DNA of 57,091 bases from a virus (taxonomy: Duplodnaviria > Heunggongvirae > Uroviricota > Caudoviricetes), in the IMG/VR virus record IMGVR_UViG_2534681675_000025, positions 1 through 57,091 of that record, one strand, 5' to 3'. The translations under genes were made by a program, and so were the position numbers. The notes beneath the pieces are model-generated. The model worked only from the letters and a program-made list of their open reading frames with translations, ran no database searches and was not told the origin of the DNA. This document shows, one piece after another, positions 12,605 through 37,210 of the stretch (within the stretch, counting starts at the first letter, position 1; each line of letters opens with the position of its first letter).

Positions 12605-13458
12605 GCACCATCCTGAAATGGGCGGGAAATAAAACCGCCATTATGTCCGAACTGAAAAAACACCTTCCTGCTGGCCCGCGACTGGTTGAACCTTTCGCGG
12701 GTTCCTGTGCTGTGATGATGGAGACGGATTACCCCAGCTATCTGGTTGCGGATATTAATCCTGATTTAATCAACCTCTATAAAAAGGTTGCCGCTGATTG
12801 TGAATCGTTTATATCTCGCGCCAGAGTTTTATTTGAGATCGCAAACAGGGAGGTGGCTTATTACAACATAAGGCAGGAGTTTAATTACTCCACTGAAATT
12901 ACTGATTTCATGAAAGCGGTATATTTCCTGTATCTCAATCGTCACGGTTACCGTGGTTTATGTCGCTATAACAAGAGCGGGCATTTCAACATTCCCTACG
13001 GTAATTATAAAAATCCGTATTTCCCTGAAAAAGAAATTCGCGCATTTGCAGAAAAAGCCCAGCGGGCAACGTTTATCTGCGCCAGCTTTGATGAAACGCT
13101 GGCGATGTTGAAGGCGGGGGATGTGGTGTATTGCGATCCGCCGTATGACGGCACGTTTTCCGGTTATCACACTGACGGCTTCACTGAAGATGACCAGTAT
13201 CACCTGGCATCCGTTCTTGAACATCGGTCATCAGAAGGACATCCGGTCATTGTTTCTAACAGTGACACATCCCTGATCCGTTCGCTGTATCGCAATTTTA
13301 CTCACCACTACATCAAGGCAAAACGCAACATCGGTGTGGCAGCTGGCGAGGGTAAATCAGCAACAGAAATCATTGCTGTTTCCGGGCCGCGCTGCTGGGT
13401 GGGATTTGATTATTCGCGTGGCGTGGACAGTTCTGCCGTGTACGGAGTACGTGCATGA
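12601..13458 (+). CDS. dam: DNA adenine methyltransferase (Dam-like, N6-adenine)
   Basis: Begins [11 protein letters not shown]; contains DPPY motif ([10 protein letters not shown]) and N-terminal SAM-binding region FAGSCAV. Confidence 0.85.
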
Positions 13459-15869
13459 GTCATGCCGATATGAACAACTGCTGCGGCTTTAACGAGGCTA
13501 CCGCAGCATTCTCATGGAACAGCCCGAAAAAGGCCATTAACCCTTATCTGGACCCGGCGGAAGTTGCGCCGGTTTCTGCGCTTTCAAACCTGATCACTCT
13601 GTACGCTGCCGATAACGAGCAGGAACAACTGCGCCGTGAGGCACTGAGTGATCAGGTCTGGGAGCGTTATTTCTTTAATGAATCCCGTGATCCTGTCCAG
13701 CGCGAAATGGAGCAGGATAAGCTAATTAGCCGGGCAAAGCTGGCGCATGAGCAGCAGCGTTTTAATCCAGACATGGTCATTCTGGCGGATGTCAACGCCC
13801 AGCCTTCCCATATCAGCAAGCCGCTGATGCAACGTATTAAATACTTCAGCAACCTGGGCAGGCCAAAGGCTTATTCCCGCTATTTGCGTGAGACGATTAA
13901 GCCATGCTTGGAACGACTGGAGCATGTACGCGACAGCCAGCTATCTGCATCTTTTCGTTTTATGGCAAGCCATGAAGGGCTGGACGGTCTGCTGATCCTG
14001 CCTGAAATGAGTCAGGATCAGGTGAAACGCCTGTCCACCCTTGTCGCTGCGCATATGAGCATGTGTCTTGATGCCGCTTGTGGTGATTTGTACGCCTCCG
14101 ATGATGTTAAGCCGGAAGAAATCCGCAAGACATGGGAAAAGGTGGCAGCAGAAACCCTGCGACTGGATGTCATACCGCCTGCGTTTGAGCAACTCCGCCG
14201 GAAAAGAAACCGCCGCAAACCTGTGCCCTATGAACTCATTCCGGGTTCGCTGGCGCGTATGCTGTGCGCCGACTGGTGGTATCGGAAATTATGGAAGATG
14301 CGTTGCGAATGGCGGGAAGAGCAGTTGCGTGCTGTCTGTCTGGTCAGCAAAAAAGCATCTCCCTATGTCAGCTATGAAGCCGTGATGCATAAACGTGAGC
14401 AGCGCCGTAAGTCGCTGGAGTTTTTCCGTTCTCATGAACTGGTGAACGAAGACGGCGACACGCTGGACATGGAGGATGTGGTAAACGCCAGCAGCAGCAA
14501 CCCTGCGCATCGCCGCAATGAGATGATGGCCTGTGTTAAAGGCCTGGAGCTTATCGCGGAAATACGCGGTGACTGCGCCGTTTTCTACACCATCACCTGT
14601 CCGTCACGTTTCCATTCCACGCTAAATAACGGCAGGCCCAACCCGACCTGGACAAATGCGACGGTAAGACAAAGCAGTGATTATCTGGTTGGCATGTTTG
14701 CTGCATTTCGTAAGGCGATGCACAAAGCCGGATTGCGCTGGTATGGCGTGCGGGTGGCTGAGCCGCATCATGACGGTACAGTTCACTGGCACCTGTTGTG
14801 TTTTATGCGCAAAAAAGATCGCCGCGCCATTACTGCTTTGTTGCGTAAGTTTGCCATTCGTGAAGACCGCGAGGAGCTGGGGAATAACACGGGACCACGC
14901 TTTAAGTCTGAGTTGATTAACCCGCGCAAAGGAACGCCGACAAGCTACATCGCGAAATATATCAGTAAGAACATTGACGGGCGTGGTCTGGCTGGCGAGA
15001 TCAGCAAGGAAACGGGTAAATCCCTGCGTGATAACGCTGAATACGTGAATGCCTGGGCGTCTCTGCATCGTGTTCAGCAATTCCGCTTCTTTGGCATTCC
15101 GGGGCGTCAGGCTTACCGTGAACTGCGATTGCTGGCTGGTCAGGCGGCAAGGCAACAGGGTGACAAAAAAGCAGGTGCGCCGGTACTGGATAACCCGCGC
15201 CTTGATGCAATCCTGGCTGCTGCTGATGCTGGTTGTTTTGCCACCTACATCATGAAGCAGGGCGGCGTACTGGTTCCCCGTAAATATCACCTCATCAGAA
15301 CCGCTTATGAAATCAACGAAGAGCCAACCGCCTATGGCGATCACGGTATTCGTATTTATGGCATCTGGTCACCCATTGCAGAGGGCAAGATCTGCACTCA
15401 TGCAGTGAAGTGGAAAATGGTTCGTAAGGCCGTTGACATTCAGGAGGCGGCAGCCGACCAGGGCGCTTGCGCCCCTTGGACTCGTGGCAATAACTGTCCC
15501 CTTGCTGAAAATTTGAACCAACAGGAGAAAGATAAATCAGCTGATGGGGGCCCCAGAACGGACTTTACCCGCATGGATGACAAGGAGTTGCACGATTACC
15601 TGCACAGTATGAACAAAAAGGGGCGCCGGGAACTGGCTGCAAGGTTACGTCTGGTGAAACCGAAACGGCGTAGAGACTACAAACAGCGAATTACAGACCA
15701 TCAACGACAGCAGCTCGTCTATGAACTGAAATCCAGAGGATTTGATGGCAGCGAGAAAGAGGTCGATTTACTCCTTCGCGGCGGCAGTATTCCGTCAGGA
15801 GCAGGCCTGCGTATCTTCTATCGGAACCAGCGTTTGCAGGAAGATGATAAGTGGCGGAACCTGTATTAA
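13455..15869 (+). CDS. A: Replication initiation endonuclease (P2 gene A family, rolling-circle initiator)
   Basis: 804 aa; conserved region [16 protein letters not shown] and HxH region HWHLLCF typical of P2/186 A proteins. Confidence 0.9.
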
Positions 15870-16023: not shown

Positions 16024-16212
16024 ATGCAGGACTATTTTTTGGAGTCTTTGAAGCTCCAGCGCATTGATTTTTTTCTTAAGCTTGTAGCGGCTAGTGAGTG
16101 TAGTGATGAAGAGAAGGGGCTGGCTCTGCAGTGGGTTTCTGAATTGACTGATGAACTCATGGCAAAAATCAGAAGCCACGAATACAACCGCTCAATGGAT
16201 GTCATCAGCTGA
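16024..16212 (+). CDS. Hypothetical small protein, possibly Tum-like antirepressor N-terminal part
   Basis: 62-aa ORF downstream of the LexA box and immediately upstream of the DinI-like gene. Confidence 0.4.
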   Translation: MQDYFLESLKLQRIDFFLKLVAASECSDEEKGLALQWVSELTDELMAKIRSHEYNRSMDVIS

Positions 16213-16222
16213 GGTGACTTTT

Positions 16223-16456
16223 ATGCGCATTGAAATAATGATCGATAAAGAGCAGAAGATTAGCCAGTCTACCCTGGACGCCCTTGAATCCGAGCTTTAC
16301 CGCAATCTGCGCCCCCTGTATCCCAAAACGGTAATCCGTATCCGTAAAGGTAGCTCTAACGGTGTGGAACTGACCGGACTGCAACTGGACGAAGAAAGAA
16401 AACAAGTGATGAAAATTATGCAGAAGGTGTGGGAAGACGACAGCTGGCTGTATTGA
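16223..16456 (+). CDS. DinI-family protein
   Basis: 77 aa, MRIEIMIDKEQ...VWEDDSWLY, resembles DinI (MRIEVTI...WESADDWF). Confidence 0.75.
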   Translation: MRIEIMIDKEQKISQSTLDALESELYRNLRPLYPKTVIRIRKGSSNGVELTGLQLDEERKQVMKIMQKVWEDDSWLY

Positions 16457-16569
16457 TTTTGTCAATAGACGCTTGTTTTTACTAATCAAAAAGGGTTACA
16501 TATGAGTGAGAGGCGATGTCAATCAGATATCGCCTTGTTTTTTGTCAAGAAAAGAATAATAGGCTAAAA

Positions 16570-17247
16570 ATGAAAATTAATAATGTAGCGTTACCAATAT
16601 CTCTTGCTGTAATCCTAACTGGTTGCGTGCCACATGCTTCTAACCGAAATATCACTGCTATTGAAGTGGTGAAGCCTGCTATTGGGCAAAGTGCTACCGC
16701 CTACATGGGCGATCCCATTATCACATCTGCTACTGGATTTAAAACGGACGTACTAGAACTTGGTGCGGCTAATGGTGCATTGTCTTCTATCGCTGCTGGT
16801 ACATATTGCAGTGAGGGGAATGGAATTTACCGCAATTATCATAACCCTCAAGCTGTTGCGTTAAAAAATCTCTATGGGCAAATCGGTAACTATGTTGATT
16901 ATGTTAGTTACGATGCTGCAAAAAATGAGATATCACCGCCAAATGGTACTTCTTATACTGCATCAGAAATTTCTATCAAACGTGTTCCTGATGGGCTGTG
17001 TCGAGTTAGTAACTCATTGGTTAAGACTATCGAATACAATGGAAATGCAGGCGGTGTAATGAAGTTCACCTATCGTGAATTTGCAAACGATATGGCTCGT
17101 GCAGCATTTACAACAGATTTTTCTGTAGATTCTAAGGGAAGTGACGTTATCGCTTACAAAGGTGCCAAGTTCAAAGTGAACAAGGCTGATAACTCGTCTA
17201 TTTCTTATACAATTATTTCTGGCTTTGACAAGGCTGTCACGTTCTAG
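16570..17247 (+). CDS. Predicted lipoprotein, function unknown (cargo)
   Basis: MKINNVALPISLAVILTGC lipobox signal; 225 aa; lies between the replication gene and cos. Confidence 0.7.
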   Translation: MKINNVALPISLAVILTGCVPHASNRNITAIEVVKPAIGQSATAYMGDPIITSATGFKTDVLELGAANGALSSIAAGTYCSEGNGIYRNYHNPQAVALKNLYGQIGNYVDYVSYDAAKNEISPPNGTSYTASEISIKRVPDGLCRVSNSLVKTIEYNGNAGGVMKFTYREFANDMARAAFTTDFSVDSKGSDVIAYKGAKFKVNKADNSSISYTIISGFDKAVTF

Positions 17248-17350
17248 GTTTCACGCTTACTGAGTATGTTACGATTTTGCACATTCTGCATAAGCGCGCA
17301 TGTCTATGCTGCATGAGATCGCATGATCGTTTGAGGATCTTTTGTGTTAA

Positions 17351-17375
17351 GGCCCGCCAGTTCTGGCGGGCTTTT
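17351..17375 (+). terminator. Putative terminator after the lipoprotein gene
   Basis: ggcccgccag-ttc-tggcgggc stem followed by tttt. Confidence 0.5.
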
Positions 17376-17420
17376 GCGTAGATCATGCAGGTGCATGAAA
17401 ACCACTACATAAAGCGGGCA

Positions 17421-17439
17421 GGCGTGGCGGGGATACGAG
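17421..17439 (+). other. Candidate cos (cohesive end) site of prophage 1
   Basis: ggcgtggcggggatacgag followed by cgcgcgct; resembles the P2/186 cohesive-end sequence as I recall it (GGCGAGGCGGGGAAAGCAC then TGCGCGCT). Confidence 0.5.
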
Positions 17440-17549
17440 CGCGCGCTCATGGTTGAATTAATGAAATTATGGTGTTAAATAGGCTAGCTTTTTAAGTCGT
17501 GAATATTCAATTTTTCAACTCATTTTTTTCATAGGGAGGAGTAATTGAC

Positions 17550-18248
17550 ATGGTTATGTTAGTGGATGACTGTCCACGATGTGGATCACAAAAAATAGCG
17601 TTTGATGTTAATGGGCTGAATTGCACTAGGGTTTACAATGCATTGGGCGGGGGTAAAACATACGAGTACGAGGTCTATTGTGTTTGCCGAGAGTGTCATA
17701 AAACGACAATGTTTCTTTGCAGACCTTTAACGAAAAATAAAACTTTAGATGGCTATAATTGGGAAAGTGGAATATTCGGCTTAAAGGAAGTTGCAGAGGT
17801 TGTTAGGCCTATATCACCGGCAGACTTAGCAGTAGAGGAGCCACCAGAGTTCTTACCTGAGCATATCAATAGTGCATATGAGGAAGGGGCGAAATGTTTG
17901 GCTATAGGTTGTTATAATGCAGCAGCAACCATGTTTAGGCTTTGCCTTGATTATGCCACAAAAGGACTTCTTCCTGATGGGGAGCAAGGGCCTGCGCAAA
18001 AAATAAGGAGAAGCCTAGGGTTAAGAATGGAGTGGTTATTTGATAATCATCTACTGCCTGAAGCTTTAAGGGAACTAGCTGAATGCGTTAAAGATGACGG
18101 AAATGATGGAGCGCATGAAGGTATTTTGGATAAAGCTGCTGCTGAGGATCTTGAAGATTTTACCTATCTTTTTTTAGAACGGCTTTACACTGAACCTCAA
18201 CGCCTTATCGAAGCCAAGACAAGGCGTGAACAAAGAAGAAACAAATAA
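17550..18248 (+). CDS. Zinc-ribbon plus alpha-helical domain protein (possibly DUF4145-like), inserted between cos and Q
   Basis: 232 aa; N-terminal CPRCG...CVCRECH four-Cys ribbon; RBS gggagga before ATG; convergent with Q, 3' ends 8 bp apart. Confidence 0.7.
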   Translation: MVMLVDDCPRCGSQKIAFDVNGLNCTRVYNALGGGKTYEYEVYCVCRECHKTTMFLCRPLTKNKTLDGYNWESGIFGLKEVAEVVRPISPADLAVEEPPEFLPEHINSAYEEGAKCLAIGCYNAAATMFRLCLDYATKGLLPDGEQGPAQKIRRSLGLRMEWLFDNHLLPEALRELAECVKDDGNDGAHEGILDKAAAEDLEDFTYLFLERLYTEPQRLIEAKTRREQRRNK

Positions 18249-18256
18249 GTTCGGAA

Positions 18257-19294
18257 TTATTCTTCTGAAAGAATATAGGGCGTAAATTTAATCACTTCTT
18301 CGCCCAGCCAGTCGTTCAGCTCTTGTAGCCTTTTTTGCAAGGGAGTTAATTCATTACGTACAAATACGCGACTGGCCTTCTCCACATCCCCAAACCCTCC
18401 AACATTATTAGGCATAATCCCCATCATTTGCGGCGGCACGCGGTGCGCAGCCATCATGTCGTCGCGGCTGACATTTTTGATATTCAAAAACTCATCCTTC
18501 GCCGCGACTTCTGACAATGGGATGATCTGAAGCCCGTCTTTTTTGCCGTTAGGCGAGTACATAAACAGGTTGCGGAAGTTGCCTGGACCTTTGGCGCTTT
18601 TCATCGCATTGCGGAGGTTGTTCACATCCTCCTGGTTTTGCGCGGCATCGGTCATGTACATGATAAAGCCCGCATGACTGCCGTTAATGTAATACTTGCG
18701 ACGGAACAGCGTGGCGGACTCGTTGAGCAGGGCTGACGGAATGGCAGAAAGATAACCGGGCAGGCCGTAGATCTCCTGATTAATATCCGGTTCCATCAGA
18801 TGAAAAATGCTGCCTTTCGTGAACTGATACGGCTGGGTTGTCATACCGTATTGCACAAACCAGTAGGTATCCAGGTCTAACCCGCGTCGGGTGTATTTTG
18901 CCAGTGCAGGCTCAAGGGCGATAACTTCACCGAAGCGGTTCGTGCGTTTCTCCAGGTAGGCGTTACCAAAAACCAGATAGTCCTGCACAAAACGCGAAAA
19001 AGCCTGCTGGCTGAGCAGCGGGTGAGGGATGTAGGTGCTGGTCAGAATGTTGCACTTTACTGCAATCGGGGAACTATGATGCACGGCAGCGCGGAAGGTG
19101 CGCGCCAGTCCGTCAAAGCTGACGGGCGGCTCATACCAGCGGTCCATCTGTACGCATTCCACATAATCCAGCAGTTCTCGGCGGTCCAGAACAGGAACGG
19201 GATCGCCGAAGCTGAATGCTTCGGCTGTAGTTTGACTTTTAAGCTGGATCTGTTTCGTCGCCGCAGCGCGGTTCTTCTTACTCTTTCCCATCAA
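18257..19294 (-). CDS. Q: Portal protein (P2 gpQ family)
   Basis: 345 aa, P2 Q-like sequence and position next to terminase P. Confidence 0.9.
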   Translation of the reverse strand: MMGKSKKNRAAATKQIQLKSQTTAEAFSFGDPVPVLDRRELLDYVECVQMDRWYEPPVSFDGLARTFRAAVHHSSPIAVKCNILTSTYIPHPLLSQQAFSRFVQDYLVFGNAYLEKRTNRFGEVIALEPALAKYTRRGLDLDTYWFVQYGMTTQPYQFTKGSIFHLMEPDINQEIYGLPGYLSAIPSALLNESATLFRRKYYINGSHAGFIMYMTDAAQNQEDVNNLRNAMKSAKGPGNFRNLFMYSPNGKKDGLQIIPLSEVAAKDEFLNIKNVSRDDMMAAHRVPPQMMGIMPNNVGGFGDVEKASRVFVRNELTPLQKRLQELNDWLGEEVIKFTPYILSEE

Positions 19295-25798: not shown

Positions 25799-26192
25799 AG
25801 CAGTGCCTTATGTCCGCAATAACCCGGATAAGCTGCATCTGTTTGTGGATAACGGTTCGCTGGTTGCCACGGGGGCCAGCTCCATGTCATGGGAGTACCG
25901 TTATACCCTCAACGTGGTGATTGAGGATTTCAGCGGCGACCAGAATCTGCTGATGGCCCCGGTTTTGCTGTGGCTGCGTGATAACCAGCCCGATGCCATC
26001 AATAATCCGGCGTTACGGGAAAAGTTATTCACCTTTGAGGTGGATATTCTGCGCAACGATGTCTGTGATATCAGCCTCAACCTGCAACTGACGGAACGTG
26101 TGCTGGTCAGCACTGACGGAAGTGTGTCGAGCGTTGAAGCAGTAGCGGAACCCGATGAACCTGAAGAAATGTGGACGGTGAAACGTGGCTGA
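25761..26192 (+). CDS. R: Tail completion protein (P2 gpR family); start uncertain (TTG 25740 or GTG 25761)
   Basis: Position and sequence similar to prophage 2 R; RBS-like caggag before GTG 25761. Confidence 0.7.
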   Translation: MNKPQSLRHALNKAVPYVRNNPDKLHLFVDNGSLVATGASSMSWEYRYTLNVVIEDFSGDQNLLMAPVLLWLRDNQPDAINNPALREKLFTFEVDILRNDVCDISLNLQLTERVLVSTDGSVSSVEAVAEPDEPEEMWTVKRG

Positions 26193-26637
26193 ACTGCAGA
26201 AGGTGGACGACTGGCTGAGTGCTTTGCTGGCGAATCTGGAACCAGCCGCAAGAAGCCGAATGATGCGCCAGCTGGCGCAGGAACTGCGCCGGACACAGCA
26301 GCAGAATATCAGGATGCAGCGCAATCCAGATGGCAGCAGTTATGAGCCGCGCAGGGTAACAGCACGCAGCAAGAAGGGGCGCATCAAACGTCAGATGTTT
26401 GCAAAGCTGCGCACCACAAAATACCTGAGAACTGCCGCCAGCGCGGATTCTGCCAGCGTACAGTTTGAAGGTAAGGTACAGCGTATTGCCCGTGTTCATC
26501 ACTACGGTCTGCGCGATCGCGTCAGTCCAAAGGGGGGAGTCATTAAGTATCCATCCCGAAAATTGCTGGGTTTAAATGAACATACTGAAAATGAAGTAAG
26601 AGATTTACTTTTAAAGTATTTATTGATGAAAAATTAG
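26185..26637 (+). CDS. S: Tail completion/virion morphogenesis protein (P2 gpS family)
   Basis: 150 aa, GTG start overlapping R. Confidence 0.8.
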   Translation: MAELQKVDDWLSALLANLEPAARSRMMRQLAQELRRTQQQNIRMQRNPDGSSYEPRRVTARSKKGRIKRQMFAKLRTTKYLRTAASADSASVQFEGKVQRIARVHHYGLRDRVSPKGGVIKYPSRKLLGLNEHTENEVRDLLLKYLLMKN

Positions 26638-26642
26638 AATGT

Positions 26643-27212
26643 TTACGCTCTTAATAAACTTAAATAACTTTTTATGCTTTGGCAAAAAGGGAAAAGGTCT
26701 ATTTTAATTTTCCAGTTTTTTTTGTTTTGAACCCCAGAAGCAATAATAGAACCGTCCCAATATTTTATTCCATTTTTGCCGGTCTTTTTTGTTAACTCAA
26801 AACTTAATGCGTGAATAATTTTATTGCAGCATTCGCGTATAGAATCTTTAACATGACCATCTATAACAAAAAGTATATTTTCATGTTCTTCAAATGCTTC
26901 TTTCTCAGGTGAGTAATCTGGGTTCCACTCATGTTCACTAGTGTCTTGGAGAATTCGTAGTTTTGTACAAAGGCTAATAAGATTGTTGCTAATGGTATAT
27001 TCCAACCATCCGTTGTACGATAACTCCTCCATTTCAAATTCAGTTACTATAGAACCATCATATACTTTCTGTGTGGAATATATACGCTGTAAATAAAATT
27101 CAGATGAACAGCATAATTGCTCAATTATTCTTGCGTGTTCTTCTATAGCGTAATAATCAATTGGATGGCTCATTCTTTTACCTTTCTTTGATTGGAATTG
27201 TATTTGTGTCAT
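26643..27212 (-). CDS. Hypothetical AT-rich protein inserted between S and V; start 27212 or 27173
   Basis: 189-aa (or 176-aa) ORF on the opposite strand to the flanking tail genes; AT-rich; no recognisable motif. Confidence 0.6.
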   Translation of the reverse strand: MTQIQFQSKKGKRMSHPIDYYAIEEHARIIEQLCCSSEFYLQRIYSTQKVYDGSIVTEFEMEELSYNGWLEYTISNNLISLCTKLRILQDTSEHEWNPDYSPEKEAFEEHENILFVIDGHVKDSIRECCNKIIHALSFELTKKTGKNGIKYWDGSIIASGVQNKKNWKIKIDLFPFCQSIKSYLSLLRA

Positions 27213-27268
27213 TTACCACACAAGGACGTATTGATGCCATAGATTCAAGGTCCGTGCAACCTAACCCT

Positions 27269-27847
27269 ATGAACGCACAACTAACCGAAATCATGCGCCT
27301 TATCACCAACCTGATCCGCACTGGTGTAGTCACCGAAGTGGACCGGGAAAACTGGCTTTGCCGGGTTAAAACGGGCGAGCTTGAAACCAACTGGATCAGC
27401 TGGCTGACGCTGCGTGCCGGGAATGCCCGCACATGGTGGCGACCATCGGAAGGTGAGCAGGTGGTGCTGCTGAGTCTGGGCGGCAATCTGGAAACTGCCT
27501 TTGCGCTGCCCGCTGTCTATTCGAATCAGTTCGCACCACCGTCGACGTCGGCAGACGCCTGCGTGACAGAACATCCTGACGGCGGCTGGTTTGAATACGA
27601 ACCCACTACCGGGCGCTGGTATGTCAGGGGCATCAAATCAATGGTCATTGAGGCCGCTGACAACATCACCATGAAAACCAGTGAGTTTGTACTGGAGGCT
27701 GACCGCACGCGCATTAACAGCGAAGTGGTGATCAATGGTGGCGTTACCCAGGGCGGCGGAGCGATGAGTTCTAACGGGATCGTGGTTGATGCGCATCAGC
27801 ATACTGACGTCCTGAAAGGCGGCGACACAACCGGAGGCCCGGTATGA
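27269..27847 (+). CDS. V: Baseplate spike/assembly protein (P2 gpV family)
   Basis: Begins MNAQLTEIMRLITNLIRTG, similar to P2 V N-terminus as recalled. Confidence 0.85.
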   Translation: MNAQLTEIMRLITNLIRTGVVTEVDRENWLCRVKTGELETNWISWLTLRAGNARTWWRPSEGEQVVLLSLGGNLETAFALPAVYSNQFAPPSTSADACVTEHPDGGWFEYEPTTGRWYVRGIKSMVIEAADNITMKTSEFVLEADRTRINSEVVINGGVTQGGGAMSSNGIVVDAHQHTDVLKGGDTTGGPV

Positions 27848-29098: not shown

Positions 29099-29696
29099 TC
29101 TGCTGCCACCGGGTTCAACTTCACTGGAGCGCCGACTGGCGCAAACCTGTAGCGGGATTTCTGATCTGCAGGTGCCGCTGCGTGACTTGTGGAATCCGGC
29201 TACCTGTCCGGTCAGCTTCCTGCCTTATCTCGCCTGGGCGTTCTCTGTGGATCGCTGGGACGAGGGCTGGACAGAAAGCGTCAAACGCCAGGTAGTGAAG
29301 GATGCTTTTTATATTCATCAGCATAAAGGAACTACCAGTGCCGTGCGGCGGGTGGTGGAACCGTTCGGATTCCTGATCCGCATTATTGAGTGGTGGCAGA
29401 CCGGAGAAACACCGGGCACGTTTCGCCTGGATATCGGCGTGCAGGACCAGGGCATCACTGAAGATACCTATCTGGAACTTGAGCGGCTGATAAGCGATGC
29501 CAAACCATGTAGCCGTCACATGATCGGCATGTCCATCAATCTGCAGACCAGCGGTCCGCATTGGGTGGGGGCCGCCAGCTATCTTGGCGAAGAAATCACG
29601 ATCTATCCGTATATCAACGAAACAATTATTTCCGGCGGCACCGCGCATGAAGGCGGGGCGGTCCATGTTATTGACACAATGAGAGTGAATCCATGA
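29091..29696 (+). CDS. I: Baseplate protein (P2 gpI family)
   Basis: 201 aa, begins MNSLLPPGSTSLERRL. Confidence 0.85.
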   Translation: MNSLLPPGSTSLERRLAQTCSGISDLQVPLRDLWNPATCPVSFLPYLAWAFSVDRWDEGWTESVKRQVVKDAFYIHQHKGTTSAVRRVVEPFGFLIRIIEWWQTGETPGTFRLDIGVQDQGITEDTYLELERLISDAKPCSRHMIGMSINLQTSGPHWVGAASYLGEEITIYPYINETIISGGTAHEGGAVHVIDTMRVNP

Positions 29697-31210
29697 GCAC
29701 AAAATTTTATACCCTGCTGACGGATATTGGCGCGGCGAAACTTGCCAGCGCCGCCGCGCTCGGTGTGCCGCTAAAAATTACCCATATGGCGGTGGGCGAT
29801 GGCGGCGGAACATTGCCAACGCCGGACGCCAAGCAGACAGCATTGGTAAATGAGAAACGCCGGGCTGCGCTGAATATGCTCTATATCGACCCGCAGAACA
29901 GCAGCCAGATTATTGCTGAACAGGTGATCCCTGAAAACGAGGGCGGTTGGTGGATACGTGAAGTGGGCCTGTTTGATGAGTCCGGGGCATTGATTGCCGT
30001 GGGCAACTGCCCGGAAAGCTATAAGCCGCAACTGGCTGAAGGCAGCGGGCGTACCCAGACCGTGCGCATGGTGCTGATTACCAGCAGCACGGACAATATC
30101 ACCCTGAAAATCGACCCTGCCGTAGTGCTGGCAACCCGCAAGTATGTGGATGACAAGGTACTGGAGCTGAAGGTGTACGTGGATGATCAGATGGCAAAAC
30201 ATCTTGCCGCACCGGACCCGCATTCACAGTATGCACCCAAAGAAAGTCCGACGTTTACCGGGACACCAAAAGCGCCAACTCCAGCGGCAGGGAATAACAC
30301 CACGCAGGTTGCGACCACCGCGTTTGTTCAGGCGGCACTGACGGCTCTTATTAATGGTGCGCCAGCCACGCTGGACACGCTGAAAGAAATAGCCGCAGCC
30401 ATTAACAATGATCCGAATTTCAGTACCACCATTAACAATGCGCTGGCACTGAAAGCGCCGTTGTCGAGTCCGGCACTCACCGGAACGCCAACAGCCCCCA
30501 CTGCTGCACAGTCGGTCAACAATACACAGATTGCCACCACGGCTTTTGTGAAATCGGCGATTGCAGCAATGGTAGGTTCTGCACCTGCGGCACTGGATAC
30601 ACTGAACGAACTGGCGTCGGCGTTGGGGAATGATCCGAACTTTGCCACGACAATGCTTAATGCGCTGGCAGGTAAACAACCGCTGGACAATACGCTGACT
30701 AATTTGAGTGGAAAGGATGTCGCTGGTCTTCTCGCATACCTTGGTTTGGGAGAAGGTGCTCCAGCTATTGGCGTTCCGTTCTTCTGGCCGTCCGCCGCAA
30801 TGCCAGATACCGTAATCGAAAGCTGGTCCGGCATGGTGTTTTTGAAGTTCAACGGCGCGAAATTCTCTGCCACTGATTACCCTGTGCTGGCGAAAGTGTT
30901 TCCTTCGCTGGTATTACCTGAAGCCCGCGGTGATTTCATTCGTATCTGGGATGATGGCCGTGGTGTTGATAGTGGCCGTGCGTTACTTTCCGCGCAATCA
31001 GACGATTTCAAAACGCACGAGCATAAAATTTTAGGGCTAAATGGAAGTGGCAGTAATGTAGTGTTTGGCACCGTTTCGAATGCTTCTCCATTATATACCA
31101 GCGGCGTTAGTCAGCCGGGTGGAAGTGCTTTGCCCGCTTTTCAAAACCCAGGCGGTACTGAAACGCGTCCCCGTAACATCGCATTCAACTTTTTAGTAAG
31201 GGCTAAATAA
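29693..31210 (+). CDS. H: Tail fibre protein (P2 gpH family)
   Basis: 505 aa; conserved N-terminus; internal repeats of the LDTLxELAxALGNDPNF motif. Confidence 0.85.
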   Translation: MSTKFYTLLTDIGAAKLASAAALGVPLKITHMAVGDGGGTLPTPDAKQTALVNEKRRAALNMLYIDPQNSSQIIAEQVIPENEGGWWIREVGLFDESGALIAVGNCPESYKPQLAEGSGRTQTVRMVLITSSTDNITLKIDPAVVLATRKYVDDKVLELKVYVDDQMAKHLAAPDPHSQYAPKESPTFTGTPKAPTPAAGNNTTQVATTAFVQAALTALINGAPATLDTLKEIAAAINNDPNFSTTINNALALKAPLSSPALTGTPTAPTAAQSVNNTQIATTAFVKSAIAAMVGSAPAALDTLNELASALGNDPNFATTMLNALAGKQPLDNTLTNLSGKDVAGLLAYLGLGEGAPAIGVPFFWPSAAMPDTVIESWSGMVFLKFNGAKFSATDYPVLAKVFPSLVLPEARGDFIRIWDDGRGVDSGRALLSAQSDDFKTHEHKILGLNGSGSNVVFGTVSNASPLYTSGVSQPGGSALPAFQNPGGTETRPRNIAFNFLVRAK

Positions 31211-31803
31211 TGAAACCTGTTTTTGATGAAAATGGACTGGCTACAGTGCCGGGTGATATGCGTTGTTTTTATTATGATGCAGTAACGTATGAATATACGG
31301 GCTGGTCTGATGAATATATTAATACTGGTATAAGTATGCCCGCCTGTTCCACTGGTATTGACCCTGGCGAAAACATTCCGGGAAAAGTGGCTGTATTTAC
31401 AGGTAAGGGATGGAGCCATGAAGAGGACCATCGCAATGAGACTGTTTACTCAATCGAAAATGGCGCAGCTGTTACAGTGGATTATATCGGTGCCATCAAA
31501 AACGGTTATGTCACGCTTTCACCGTTAACGCCATATGATAAATGGGATGGTGAGAAATGGGTGACAGATACTGAGGCACAACACGGTGCCGCAGTAGAAG
31601 CGGCAGAAGCACAGCGTCAGCCACTGATTGATGCTGCAATGGCTTCCATCAGTCTGATTCAGCTGAAATTACAGGCCGGGCGGAAGCTGACGCAGGCAGA
31701 AACCACCCGGCTTAACGCCGTGCTTGATTACATTGACGCGGTGACGGCAACAGATACGAGCACCGCTCCGGATGTCATCTGGCCTGAACTGCCGGAGGCG
31801 TAG
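31210..31803 (+). CDS. G: Tail fibre assembly protein (P2 gpG family)
   Basis: 197 aa, start overlaps H stop. Confidence 0.8.
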   Translation: MKPVFDENGLATVPGDMRCFYYDAVTYEYTGWSDEYINTGISMPACSTGIDPGENIPGKVAVFTGKGWSHEEDHRNETVYSIENGAAVTVDYIGAIKNGYVTLSPLTPYDKWDGEKWVTDTEAQHGAAVEAAEAQRQPLIDAAMASISLIQLKLQAGRKLTQAETTRLNAVLDYIDAVTATDTSTAPDVIWPELPEA

Positions 31804-32209
31804 GCCATTCAATATCTGGAGCACTGGAGGTATCAACCAGTTCCAGTGCGTCCAGATAATCCAGCCACAAATTATATTGCGCCAGTTCCTCACCTTTCAG
31901 ACGACCAATAGCCGCTTTACCAGGCCATTGCTTGGTATTCATATATTCGTTGGACTGATTAATCAATTGCTGTTTTTTCAATTCGGCTGCGGCAATCTGT
32001 TCCTCATGTGTTGGTGGTGGAATTTCAGACCATGCAGGAAAACCATTTTCCCCAGCGATACGGATTTTTCCTTTCGGCGGTAATCCGGAAAACTCAATAT
32101 ACACCTGCTCATCAACTTCAACAGCATCATCTGGCCATGAATTTACATTGATGTAGTCATCCTTAAGCGCAGGATTCACAAAAATATTTAAAGATGGACT
32201 AAAAAACAC
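31775..32209 (-). CDS. G: Tail fibre assembly protein (gpG family), prophage 2
   Basis: 144 aa; Tfa-like C-terminus; 3' end overlaps prophage 1 G by 29 bp, convergent. Confidence 0.75.
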   Translation of the reverse strand: MFFSPSLNIFVNPALKDDYINVNSWPDDAVEVDEQVYIEFSGLPPKGKIRIAGENGFPAWSEIPPPTHEEQIAAAELKKQQLINQSNEYMNTKQWPGKAAIGRLKGEELAQYNLWLDYLDALELVDTSSAPDIEWPTPPAVQAR

Positions 32210-32210
32210 A

Positions 32211-33692
32211 TCACCCTCCTATAGCAACATAACAGCCCGATACAGGATTTGCGGCAGTCGCTACGCTGGAAAAACCACGAAAGCCGCTTTTTGTGATTGC
32301 GGAGGCAGATAGTATTCCGGCACCCGAAGGTGTATGCCCCACGTGGCTGGCAACCATCACGTAGCACGCCGACGGAAAAGCGAAAGGGAAATTGTTTAAA
32401 TATCCCGCATCATCCCCCAGACTTCCCCCAAACTGCCCCACTCCCCACTGGATAATAAGTGGTCTCCGAACGCCAGAAATAATTAATGGAATTGCTACAT
32501 ACCCATTCACCAACATAGCGCCGGTTGTTGCGCCAGCCAGAGCCAATTCCCCCAAACCAAGGTAATCAAGAACTCCCTGAGTGCTGGTTTTACCAAGAAT
32601 GGCACGTCCAACACTTGTCAACGCGGTTAACGCGGCACGATCTGCCCCTGTAAAATATGGGAGTTTATCTGCTGATGTAGCAAGCTCCGCCAGCGCCGTC
32701 AGGGTGGCATCCTTCGGTTGCTTACCCGCAAGCGCGTTAGTCATGGTGGTCGCAAAATTCGGGTCATTGCCCAGCGCCGCAGCCAGTTCGTTCAGCGTGT
32801 TCAGTGCATCAGGTGACGAATCTACAAGTGCGGCAATCGCGGCCATAACGAAAGCCGTGCTTGCGATCTGGGTACTATTAGTCCCCTGTGGCGCTGTTGG
32901 TGTTGTTGGCGTTCCGGTCAGTGCCGGGCTGTTTAATGGTGCTTTCTTGCTCGTTTCATCCATTACCGCCTTAACAGCTTTTGGTGTCGCTGCCAGCGTT
33001 TCAGACGTGCTGTTCGTGGCGCTACTGAGCTGAACAATCCCTTTTTGTGTAGTGGTGGCGTTCTGGGCGGTATATTTCCCGTTAGCCAGGTCATATGCAG
33101 CCTTAACCGCTTTCGGTGTTGCGGCCAGTGTTTCTGATTCACTGTTAATTGCACTGCTTAACTGAGTAAAACCTTTTACGGTCAGCGAGGCGTCCGGGTG
33201 ACGTCGTGACTGTTCGTGCTCTGATATTTTATCATCCACATATTTGCGGGTTGCCAGAACCACAGACGGGTCGATTTTCAGCGTGATGGCTTCGGTGTTC
33301 GTGACAACCAGAATCATGCGGATAGTCTGGGTGCGTCCACTGCCTTCCTGCAACTGCGGTTTGTACGTTTCCGGGCAGTTTGCCACCGCAATGAGTACAC
33401 CTTCATCATCATAAAGCCCAATCTCACGGATCCAGAATCCTCCCTCGTTTTCAGGGATGATTTGCTCCGCAATAATCTGGCTCTGATTGTTAGGGTCAAC
33501 ACTCAGAAGATTCAGCGGTGCAATGCGTTTCTGGTTAATCAGTTTTGTTTGTGCAGGGTCTGGTGTTGGTAACACACCATTTGCATCACCAACGGCCATT
33601 TGCGTCAGATTCAGCTTACTGCCGAGCATCGTCGCGTTAGCCAGTCGTGCCGCGCCCTGATTAGTCAGAATGGCGTAGTATTTCACTGTCAT
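32211..33692 (-). CDS. H: Tail fibre protein (gpH family), prophage 2
   Basis: 493 aa; N-terminus homologous to prophage 1 H; contains LNTLNELAAALGNDPNFATT motif. Confidence 0.85.
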   Translation of the reverse strand: MTVKYYAILTNQGAARLANATMLGSKLNLTQMAVGDANGVLPTPDPAQTKLINQKRIAPLNLLSVDPNNQSQIIAEQIIPENEGGFWIREIGLYDDEGVLIAVANCPETYKPQLQEGSGRTQTIRMILVVTNTEAITLKIDPSVVLATRKYVDDKISEHEQSRRHPDASLTVKGFTQLSSAINSESETLAATPKAVKAAYDLANGKYTAQNATTTQKGIVQLSSATNSTSETLAATPKAVKAVMDETSKKAPLNSPALTGTPTTPTAPQGTNSTQIASTAFVMAAIAALVDSSPDALNTLNELAAALGNDPNFATTMTNALAGKQPKDATLTALAELATSADKLPYFTGADRAALTALTSVGRAILGKTSTQGVLDYLGLGELALAGATTGAMLVNGYVAIPLIISGVRRPLIIQWGVGQFGGSLGDDAGYLNNFPFAFPSACYVMVASHVGHTPSGAGILSASAITKSGFRGFSSVATAANPVSGCYVAIGG

Positions 33693-35189: not shown

Positions 35190-35540
35190 TTACTCCCTCA
35201 GCGTGATGGTTAACTCAACATTCTGCATGGTCTGCATGACAGTGCCCGACAGCGTCACCCCGGCGCGGCCTCCCGCTTTCCAGACAACGTCGATGGCATC
35301 CAGGGCAATGCGGGGTTCCCATCGTGTCAGCGCAATCACGGCAGCACTCATGCATTGCAGGCGCGTGGTGTTATTCATGGGTTCGTCAATCAAATCAGGC
35401 ACAAGGCTGCCATATTCCCGTCGCATAACCCGGCTTGCCAGCGGGGTGGTCAGGATATCCCTGACTGACTGTTTCAGGTGCTCCATATCGTTCAGGTTTC
35501 CCGTCCCGTCCGGATTCATTCCTGTGTAGCGGGTTGTCAC
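35190..35540 (-). CDS. W: Baseplate protein (gpW family), prophage 2
   Basis: 116 aa homologous to prophage 1 W. Confidence 0.85.
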   Translation of the reverse strand: MTTRYTGMNPDGTGNLNDMEHLKQSVRDILTTPLASRVMRREYGSLVPDLIDEPMNNTTRLQCMSAAVIALTRWEPRIALDAIDVVWKAGGRAGVTLSGTVMQTMQNVELTITLRE

Positions 35541-36118
35541 TGCGGGCCTCCTGTCGAATCGCTGCCGCCTTTCACGCCACCGTGTTTATGCGTATGCACT
35601 GTGATGCCGTTTGAGGTGAAGTTGCCGCCGCTGTGCGTGATATTGCCGCTCATCTTTCCTCCTTTTGTGACGTCAAGCGTCGCCGTTCTCAGAAGGTTTG
35701 TGCATTCCACGACGGGCGTATCCAGTTTCACGCTGACGGATGCCTGTAAAGTGGCCGTTTTAATGCCGCTGGCGCTCAGTGCGCCTGCGTCCGCGTCGTA
35801 GCGGAACACCGCGCCGTCCGGCGCGCTGATCACGATTTCTTTCAGGCTTTTGCCGGGGGCCGGATTGGCATCACTCCACAGGCTGCCAATTATCATGGCG
35901 GTTTCCGGGTTGCCGCCAATGCAGGCAATTACCACCTGTTCGCCTGGTGATGGCGGCAGCCACACATTGAAGGCTCCCGCGCGCGTGGTGTTCCAGCGCA
36001 ACCAGCCTGTTTCCAGTTCGCCGCTGCGAACGCGCACGCGCCAGGACTTCTCATCAACTTCAGAGATGATCCCGGTGCGGATGATATTGCTCAGCAGTCG
36101 CATGAGTTCTGCGCTCAC
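35537..36118 (-). CDS. V: Baseplate spike/assembly protein (gpV family), prophage 2
   Basis: 193 aa homologous to prophage 1 V. Confidence 0.85.
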   Translation of the reverse strand: MSAELMRLLSNIIRTGIISEVDEKSWRVRVRSGELETGWLRWNTTRAGAFNVWLPPSPGEQVVIACIGGNPETAMIIGSLWSDANPAPGKSLKEIVISAPDGAVFRYDADAGALSASGIKTATLQASVSVKLDTPVVECTNLLRTATLDVTKGGKMSGNITHSGGNFTSNGITVHTHKHGGVKGGSDSTGGPQ

Positions 36119-36759
36119 CGTACAGCCTCCGCAATCCGGCCCAGCACCGTGTTATAAATCAGGCGCTCATCTGCCTGGCTGATACCCAACAGCTCACGTA
36201 CCGGGTAATCGGTGAAAATGCCCGGCGCAACCTGATCGCGCTCACCGAACTGATGAACGCGGGCAATACGTGCGGCCACGCCGCTGTAACCCACCGTCAC
36301 ACCGGAAGCATCTGCACGGGCTTTCAGGTAGCGGGCGGTGCGCAGTTTTACGAACATGGGGACGCGCTTTGTGCTGTCCTGGTTGATGCGCCGGGTGCGT
36401 ATTTCCAGAAAACGGTCGATGTCATCCCGGTAAAACGTGCGGATATTGTTTTTATCCTCATCCCACCCGGTAATGGTTCGCCCGTATTTCCCCGTGTCGT
36501 GATGCCAGTTTTTCAGCGTGCGTGCTTCGTTATTCCAGATAAAGCGAATGCGCTCCTGTATCCGGGTTACGCGGCGTCTGCGTGGTGTCCATGCAGTCCC
36601 GTCCGGCGCTTTCTGTGACCGGATACGTGCCTGCTGGGCGCGACGTAAATCCTGTGCCAGCTTTCTGGCGATGTTATTGATGGCCTGCTGATTCAGGCTG
36701 TCGCGGATGGCCTCAAAGGTTTCATCCACACGGGTGAATGCCTTATCCATCGCTTTCAC
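36115..36759 (-). CDS. S: Tail completion/virion morphogenesis protein (gpS family), prophage 2
   Basis: 214 aa, homologous to prophage 1 S with internal extension. Confidence 0.75.
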   Translation of the reverse strand: MKAMDKAFTRVDETFEAIRDSLNQQAINNIARKLAQDLRRAQQARIRSQKAPDGTAWTPRRRRVTRIQERIRFIWNNEARTLKNWHHDTGKYGRTITGWDEDKNNIRTFYRDDIDRFLEIRTRRINQDSTKRVPMFVKLRTARYLKARADASGVTVGYSGVAARIARVHQFGERDQVAPGIFTDYPVRELLGISQADERLIYNTVLGRIAEAVR

Positions 36760-37210
36760 CCCACGTCACATCCTGGAATACATGTGACCAGTCGCCTTCG
36801 GAAGAGGGCAGACGGGGTTTTGGCTCCGGCAGGTGTTCTGCCTGCGGTGTGCCCTGACTGTTGCGCGTAATGCGAACGCGTTCCCGCAGGGGGAGCGTAA
36901 ACAGGAGATCGGCGCTGTCATCGTCATTGATAACGGCGGAAAATTTGATGTCCTGATTACGCTCCGGATTGAGCAACAACTGTGGCTGATTTTCGGATAA
37001 CCACGCCAGTAGTGGCAACGTGAGGTCGTCCAGCTCCCCGGCGTAATCCATGACAAACATCACCATCTGATAGCGGTAAACAAACGAGGGCGTTTCTCCG
37101 GTCGTTTCAATGTTGCCGCTCTCCACGAAAATGGTGAATTTTTCCGGGTTGGCCTGACACCATCGGCATGAACGGGTCATGGCTTCACGCAGGGAATCAG
37201 TTTTCAGCAT
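36743..37210 (-). CDS. R: Tail completion protein (gpR family), prophage 2
   Basis: 155 aa homologous to prophage 1 R. Confidence 0.75.
   Translation of the reverse strand: MLKTDSLREAMTRSCRWCQANPEKFTIFVESGNIETTGETPSFVYRYQMVMFVMDYAGELDDLTLPLLAWLSENQPQLLLNPERNQDIKFSAVINDDDSADLLFTLPLRERVRITRNSQGTPQAEHLPEPKPRLPSSEGDWSHVFQDVTWGESDG

Follow-up and report, generated by a model that had tools for sequence, protein, structure and literature searches.

An AT-rich accessory gene between tail genes S and V of P2-like prophages is exchanged together with a late promoter and may encode an anti-phage effector

Much of the cargo at the hot spots of P2-like phages is defence-related (PMC9122126; bioRxiv 10.1101/2024.10.15.618418; PMC13586616). 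Published surveys detail the A-Q (old/tin) and Z/fun sites, and cover the junction of the tail genes S and V at most under 'downstream of GpL / within the tail genes' (PMC13586616). At that junction the P2 reference record gives the order S, O-operon terminator, Orf30 (nonessential, minus strand), pV activator-binding site and V transcription start. Here we analyse the S/V junction in a stretch of viral DNA of 57,091 nucleotides (IMG/VR record IMGVR_UViG_2534681675_000025, positions 1 to 57,091; hereafter the window), in which an AT-rich cargo gene on the minus strand lies between S and V. A sequence-only reading of the window had singled out this open reading frame (ORF) and assigned it to the position of P2 orf30; the P2 record indeed has orf30 in the same place and on the same strand. 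We find that the gene is intact and under purifying selection and that it is exchanged as part of a module that includes the promoter of V, and we put forward, as an evenly balanced judgement from its sequence and surroundings, that it encodes a stand-alone defence or abortive-infection effector, carried as an accessory ('moron') gene in the S/V swap site.

The closest described counterpart by position is P2 orf30 (P2p15), which shares with the window gene the site, the minus strand, the interval that runs from the O-operon end to the pV activator site, and the character of AT-rich, dispensable cargo. The two products differ, Orf30 having 261 amino acids (aa) and the window protein 176 aa and being soluble, and BLASTP between them gave E = 0.22, which is no homology; membership of the Orf30 family was therefore rejected. 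Orf30 itself gave a weak BLASTP alignment (E = 0.043) to a DUF6216 protein of an Escherichia coli B prophage that contains hydrophobic stretches. The main P2 hot spots (old/tin between gpA and gpQ, and Z/fun) are likewise small loci between conserved genes with rapid swapping of cargo, but they were never empty in a 2026 study (PMC13586616), whereas the S/V site holds no cargo in most of the E. coli relatives sampled. The kind of element is thus a known one, that is, orf30-site cargo and prophage defence hot spots, and the protein family is uncharacterised.

The junction is made up of the following features:

26185..26637, plus strand: gene S (virion morphogenesis / tail completion; PF05069, E = 4e-42), last gene of the O late operon
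26535..27255: variable module of 721 bp, delimited by blastn against Escherichia phage 500465-1 (L032) and by the composition profile
26643..27173, minus strand: cargo coding sequence, 176 aa, 20.6 kDa, isoelectric point 5.4, no transmembrane segment
27205..27222, plus strand: TGT-N12-ACA dyad TGTGTCATTTACCACACA, Ogr/B-type late-activator site of the V promoter, P_V
27269..27847, plus strand: gene V (baseplate spike; PF04717, and so annotated by RefSeq on identical DNA), with which the V late operon begins

The gene had been described as lying within a co-directional late operon. We rejected this description on the annotation of the P2 record, in which the order from S through the O-operon terminator, Orf30 and the pV site to the V start places the site where the O and V late operons meet and not in the interior of one. 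Homology to phage 500465-1, a relative with an empty site, ends within S, at 26534 and about 34 codons short of the S stop, and picks up at 27256, 13 nt ahead of the V ATG at 27269, so that the swapped unit is 26535-27255. This unit stands in for 152 bp of the relative and contains an AT-rich variant of the S C-terminus (the last ~34 codons, 26535-26637), the cargo gene and all of the intergenic DNA between S and V with P_V. The variable AT-rich segment extends beyond the ORF on both sides, and the cargo stop codon lies 5 nt from the convergent stop of S.

The centre of the dyad is 55.5 nt before the V ATG, in agreement with the P2 record, in which V transcription starts at the first base of the V coding sequence and the pV activator site lies 42-69 nt upstream. 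We compared it with 14 other junction variants, all outside P2, which comprised one empty site, ten with different cargos and three orthologous loci (the observation is listed for window positions 27205-27222 and for loci L002, L032-L034, L038-L044, L047 and L048). All 14 had the same dyad, placed at -63 to -65 relative to the V ATG, which makes 15 out of 15 with the window. The DNA around it was unrelated among the variants, and only the activator half-sites and their spacing to V were conserved; P2 itself has no exact N12 dyad at the matching place. Because the dyad is conserved while its surroundings are not related, the comparison shows that each cargo module brings a P_V late promoter of its own, which is exchanged along with the cargo. 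With its own copy of P_V in the swapped unit, the tail operon remains functional irrespective of the cargo.

Several lines of evidence show that the cargo gene is a real, intact coding sequence. As the sequence-only reading had stated, the ORF is AT-rich, on the reverse strand and between S and V, whose identities were confirmed with Pfam. Its GC content is 0.32, compared with 0.51 for S and 0.57 for V, and the GC profile runs at 0.28-0.36 over 26450-27200 between flanks of 0.54-0.62, an atypical base composition of the kind expected of moron cargo. The chance of 189 stop-free codons at a GC content of 0.32 is about 3e-7. Orthologues are found at the same site and on the same strand in Salmonella (74% identity), Enterobacter (60%) and Pantoea (51%), and are AT-rich throughout (GC 0.32-0.37); those of Salmonella and Enterobacter end 5 nt from the S stop and that of Pantoea overlaps the 3' end of S. 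Between E. coli and Salmonella the proportions of non-synonymous and synonymous differences, pN and pS, were 0.14 and 0.66, giving dN/dS of 0.09; for the remaining orthologue pairs pS was saturated and pN was 0.27-0.33. Such values speak for purifying selection on the encoded protein, and the possibility of a pseudogene raised by the sequence-only reading is at odds with a dN/dS of ~0.09. The distribution of orthologues also indicates that the gene has a long association with P2-family phages, across four enterobacterial genera.

The length of the product had been left at 189 or 176 aa. Three features of the upstream region bear on this and on transcription of the gene:

27174..27212, minus strand: 13-codon upstream extension of the 189-aa reading, without counterpart in homologues and out of frame in Salmonella
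27181..27186, minus strand: Shine-Dalgarno-like GAAAGG, 7 nt before the ATG at 27173, read from the sequence
27197..27202, minus strand: candidate -10 hexamer TACAAT, picked out by eye from the sequence

The longest reading, 26643..27212 on the minus strand, runs to 189 aa from the first ATG, which falls within the P_V activator dyad. The second ATG, at 27173, is the start used in all close homologues, in the record of Escherichia phage Cartapus and in the RefSeq annotation. In the Salmonella orthologue a TTG stands at the codon matching this ATG, and the ATG upstream of it is out of frame and hits a stop. On the homologue starts and the Salmonella frame we rejected the 189-aa reading; together with the GAAAGG element they make 27173 almost certainly the true start, of a 176-aa product. 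The segment 27174..27212 is probably an untranslated 5' region.

The 176-aa protein is 100% identical to hypothetical protein CARTA_14 of Cartapus, a P2-related prophage of E. coli LF82 in which CARTA_14 is locus LF82_787 and is tabulated as a 189-aa ORF (PMC9928086). The host prophage in the window is a Cartapus/Fels-2-like prophage of the P2 family. LF82_789, a moron of LF82, was considered as a candidate for the same gene and ruled out, since LF82_789 is CARTA_47 and the cargo gene is LF82_787. A literature search on accession WP_000019234 returned no mention of it.

Published RNA sequencing of LF82 (Misson et al. 2023, PMC9928086 S1 Table; values are log2(fpkm+5), where fpkm is fragments per kilobase per million, with a floor of 2.32) provided the check on expression during lysogeny that had been called for. 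LF82_787 stood at 3.51 and 2.71 in lysogeny broth (LB) overnight, at 5.06 and 5.16 in column B1, at 5.89 and 5.97 in column B6, at 5.11 and 5.28 after 1 h in macrophages and at 4.57 and 4.38 after 6 h in macrophages (PMC9928086); from the table legend we read columns B1 and B6 as cultures in Dulbecco's modified Eagle medium (DMEM). S and V were at 2.3-3.3 in LB and in B1/B6, and at 6 h in macrophages V reached 4.05-4.34 and S 3.19-3.58 (PMC9928086). At best, the level of LF82_787 is about 30-55 fpkm. Because LF82_787 rises above the floor while S and V stay near it, its transcription in the lysogen is autonomous. The identical gene is therefore shown to be transcribed on its own in the LF82 lysogen, at a low level, with the late genes silent. 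Such transcription independent of the late genes is what characterises a moron, though here it lies below the cut-off that the authors applied in LB.

The sequence-only reading had suggested looking for a promoter upstream of 27212, and a consensus scan there found no full sigma-70 site on the strand of the gene. Given the candidate -10 hexamer at 27197..27202, the cargo promoter probably overlaps the late-activator site of P_V. In such an arrangement the cargo promoter would be active in the lysogen and might be turned off once Ogr/B binds late during the prophage's lytic cycle.

We examined how widely the gene and its flanks occur. In 5426 complete E. coli genomes the gene was found in 22, in every case on the chromosome, at least 99% identical and at the S/V site, and S and V together were found in 1042. 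Occupancy was judged on a sample of 60 of these 1042 genomes, and most junctions in it were empty (S/V span 1231 bp). Others carried unrelated genes, on both strands with the minus strand commoner: a DUF6216 protein (E. coli B/BL21), a TIR-domain protein (PADLOC PDC-S66/SpbK-like), an FRG-domain protein (PDC-S15), a split AAA_15 plus OLD-TOPRIM ATPase (AriA/Old-like), an ApeA-like protein together with a 195-aa protein, and several proteins without any match. The suggestion that the gene is variable cargo is borne out by these counts, with 22 genomes for the gene against 1042 for the flanks and the sampled relatives mostly empty or occupied by unrelated genes. On these annotations, the S/V site is shown to be a swap hot spot that in other E. 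coli prophages is occupied by known or candidate defence genes. Among IMG/VR viral contigs, the gene adjoins V in 18 of 18 hits. One P2-like contig (IMGVR_UViG_3300048924_000172, L075:4313-5575) holds two S/V cargo genes, a 51%-identical homologue and a convergent gene for a 420-aa protein with an RSAIVH motif (R-x4-H, HEPN-type).

The protein had no match in Pfam, NCBIfam or PADLOC, and matched end to end only phrog_18838, a family of unknown function. Sequence and profile searches of the Protein Data Bank (PDB) gave noise only, and Foldseek against PDB and BFVD returned nothing at E <= 0.001. Homology to a structural protein did not appear in any of the database searches made with the cargo protein. 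A family profile run over 1.84 billion cluster representatives at E <= 1e-3 collected at least 517 of them; the best 150 of these 517 relatives were 75-246 aa long with no sign of fusion to larger proteins. In a sample of 108 relatives none matched Pfam, NCBIfam or PADLOC and every source name was 'hypothetical protein'. That the protein has no recognisable motif holds for databases, phrog_18838 apart, and does not hold for the family alignment, which gave the core motif R-E-x-C-N-K-I-I-H-A. Counted over 108 members and numbered as in the 176-aa protein, the near-invariant residues were R73 (107/108), N117 (107/108), K118 (105/108), H121 (107/108) and W154 (107/108); G147 was conserved in 105, R113 in 100, D77 in 95 and H3 in 92 members.

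An AlphaFold2 model of good confidence (predicted local distance difference test score 89.9, predicted template modelling score 0.86) has long helices at 7-34 and 45-78, a short motif helix at 112-120, three beta-strands within 124-159 and a C-terminal helix at 160-175. With no signal peptide or transmembrane segment in the sequence, the model suggests a cytoplasmic protein that would be a helical bundle with a small beta-sheet. The closest described proteins in format are the HEPN single-gene abortive-infection proteins (AbiJ/Abi_C, ApeA and Esos), which are likewise small, stand-alone and carried on prophages or integron cassettes, and which share a conserved Arg/His motif on one helix and, judged from the model, may share a helical-bundle core. 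They differ in having R-x4-6-H where the window family has R-x7-H with an invariant N-K-x-x-H plus R73, and the window protein has, in the model, a beta-sheet after the motif helix. No Pfam or NCBIfam profile of the HEPN clan matched the protein or the 108 relatives, and hhalign of the family profile against ApeA-like and HEPN_Toprim_N proteins gave a probability below 1%. On these results and the R-x7-H spacing, HEPN membership was not assigned; the protein may nevertheless work like a HEPN protein though not filed as one. Esos is a single-gene system of Vibrio cholerae cassettes with a HEPN-like domain only (bioRxiv 10.1101/2024.07.02.601686). Identity of the window family with Esos is unlikely, because no V. 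cholerae member turned up among the homologues found.

We next considered the genomic surroundings of the relatives. Cassette arrays of Aliivibrio, Vibrio mimicus, V. fujianensis, Vibrio sp. and Pseudoalteromonas contain the homologue as a lone ORF between attC (VCR-like) repeats; VCR-like repeats flank it in five loci (L004, L006, L008, L010 and L016), which identifies integron cassettes there and does not apply to the window gene. Chromosomal integron cassettes are experimentally rich in small single-gene defence systems (bioRxiv 10.1101/2024.07.02.601686). In Aeromonas caviae (L052:5001-5546, JBGXCQ010000010.1) a 40%-identical member has Zot, RstB and Rep_trans as neighbours in a filamentous prophage (inovirus, CTX-like), so that the family, as judged from these contexts, is carried by temperate phages of at least two unrelated kinds in addition to integron cassettes. 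In Ruegeria (L020) a distant homologue follows AbiEi (DUF6088/AbiEi_4) and AbiEii (PF08843) with an overlapping stop and start, and the set adjoins a UvrD/PD-(D/E)XK/M78 gene. Four further alphaproteobacterial loci (L017, L018, L021 and L023) resemble it in ORF layout and sizes alone. At two independent loci the homologue is adjacent to and co-directional with a HEPN_Toprim_N gene, and among the remaining neighbours are Hypoth_Ymh, a NACHT protein and an AAA_21 ATPase. The likeness to AbiE (AbiEi/AbiEii), a type IV toxin-antitoxin system, is that of a third gene translationally coupled to abiEii in Ruegeria; unlike AbiE loci, the window contains neither AbiEi nor AbiEii, and the gene is solitary in P2-like prophages and integron cassettes. 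An adjacent cognate partner, as in type II or IV toxin-antitoxin systems, was not found at the junction, where the 721-bp module fits one ORF only.

How the protein would act can be proposed from the conserved residues. The near-invariant polar cluster R73, N117, K118 and H121 (with H3 and R113 usually present), together with W154, forms an enzyme-like predicted site, and we propose an enzymatic function for the protein, most plausibly that of a metal-independent nuclease or phosphodiesterase. Before infection it would be inactive; it would then cut RNA, other nucleic acid or a nucleotide, and would in this way protect the lysogen against other phages by abortive infection. A broader form of this proposal is offered tentatively: the protein could be the founder of a new family of single-protein anti-phage effectors, with a fold and active site (H3, R73, N117, K118, H121 and W154) unrelated or remotely related to HEPN, which moves among P2-like swap sites, inovirus prophages and chromosomal integron cassettes and has been recruited to AbiE and HEPN/Toprim systems in some bacteria.

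A number of observations weigh against a role in defence. For this protein and every member of its family such a role is one that we infer from sequence, and location is weak evidence of function. None of the 5027 models of PADLOC-DB v2.0.0 matched the protein or the 108 relatives; the R113-x7-H121 spacing is outside the canonical HEPN R-x4-6-H, and R113 is absent in 8 of 108 members. Expression is low, with LB overnight values near the floor, and LF82_787 is under the 5-fold LB cut-off of the authors, who did not call it a moron (PMC9928086); the consensus scan detected neither a sigma-70 promoter nor a terminator on the strand of the gene. The cargo of P2 hot spots includes cytolethal distending toxin, a virulence factor (bioRxiv 10.1101/2024.10.15.618418), and two family members are lone insertions among housekeeping genes. 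The last two points also favour a different benefit to the host or a selfish role, in which the gene would serve adaptation to stress or to a host niche, or act as an addiction toxin that stabilises the prophage or cassette. Expression that is higher in B1/B6 and in macrophages than in LB stationary phase would fit this, as would the many non-defence cassettes on integron arrays and prophages. We consider it unlikely, though well worth keeping in view, given the recurrence of AbiE, HEPN/Toprim, Ymh, NACHT and AAA_21 neighbours and of defence-type cargo at the same S/V site in other prophages; the protein, moreover, has neither a signal peptide nor a transmembrane segment to hint at a role in virulence or at the surface, and its 721-bp module has no partner antitoxin gene.

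The same neighbours can be read another way. A small extra gene beside AbiEii toxins and HEPN/Toprim proteins is what would be expected of an immunity or regulatory partner, and a protein found on several kinds of temperate phage could be a counter-defence or antitoxin-like factor that neutralises Abi/HEPN-type effectors and is carried alone by P2-like phages to disarm their hosts. This seems distinctly improbable, because AbiE operons already encode the antitoxin AbiEi, most family members are solitary, the near-invariant R/N/K/H/W cluster has the look of an enzyme site or a ligand site, not of a variable surface for protein binding, and a moron site expressed in lysogeny and chromosomal integron cassettes are places where one expects cargo that protects the host. 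It is far less probable still that the gene serves the lytic cycle of its own phage, as a morphogenesis accessory or through antisense or promoter-occlusion control of S and V. Its location between tail genes, convergent stop codons of the gene and of S that are 5 nt apart, the lack of any detected terminator, and a putative promoter that overlaps the P_V activator site are all compatible with this, but most sampled relatives are empty here, unrelated genes in either orientation take its place, and P2 Orf30 at the same place is annotated as nonessential; purifying selection at the protein level and homologues outside phages argue for a function apart from tail assembly. Finally, annotations that are uniformly 'hypothetical protein' and low expression in LB might suggest a chance ORF or a decaying remnant. 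The size of the family, with intact copies in four genera and hundreds of distant relatives, the dN/dS of ~0.09 and the ~3e-7 estimate for a chance ORF effectively refute this, and the confident structure model also speaks against it.

A second P2-like prophage in the window allowed the junction to be compared within the same DNA:

36743-37210, minus strand: R of prophage 2
36115-36759, minus strand: S of prophage 2
35537-36118, minus strand: V of prophage 2

It has no cargo between S and V, which overlap, as the sequence-only reading had noted. The stop of S overlaps a GTG at which V starts, and the P_V dyad is missing upstream, so that S and V are probably transcribed together in that phage lineage. 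Its S has 214 aa and matches Pfam in two stretches, which suggests that it carries an insertion. The two prophages are joined head to head at invertible tail-fibre segments (30738-30754, in H at 29693-31210; with 31210-33692), and both encode a DNA invertase at the invertible segment. The window up to ~30754 matches prophage 1 of E. coli MFDS1019527 (NZ_CP169309.1, ~1.20 Mb), and the match from ~30738 onwards is to a second prophage, at ~2.11 Mb in NZ_CP169309.1 and 0.9 Mb away, namely to its invertible segment and baseplate genes. This looks like recombination between prophages at invertase crossover sites that produced a large chromosomal inversion relative to NZ_CP169309.1. In this closest complete genome the second prophage is itself rearranged (2098000-2118000; L036), with the sheath-tube-tape-measure block inverted relative to the baseplate genes and an invertase gene and several truncated tail-fibre fragments at the junction.

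The main hot spot of prophage 1, at the old/tin position, occupies 16151-18248 between A (13455-15869) and portal Q (18257-19294) and has unassigned ORFs of 101, 243 and 232 aa. By size and position alone, these are candidate counterparts of LF82_788/789 (CARTA_1/47) in Cartapus. Of that pair, LF82_789 is listed among the Cartapus morons, at 7-fold over background in LB, and LF82_788 is below the 5-fold cut-off (PMC9928086); both rise strongly in macrophages, up to log2 10.5 (PMC9928086).

The S/V junction illustrates how the exchange of cargo at an operon boundary can leave expression of a phage's tail genes intact, and the dyad with its distance to V offers a simple sequence rule by which S/V modules can be delimited. 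The cargo gene is present in the Crohn's-associated strain LF82, where its transcript levels under culture-medium and macrophage conditions exceed those in LB. If the prediction of a defence function is true, a compact (0.5 kb) and widely distributed defence gene would be added to the catalogue, and the S/V junction of P2-family prophages would become a third productive place to mine for defence genes.

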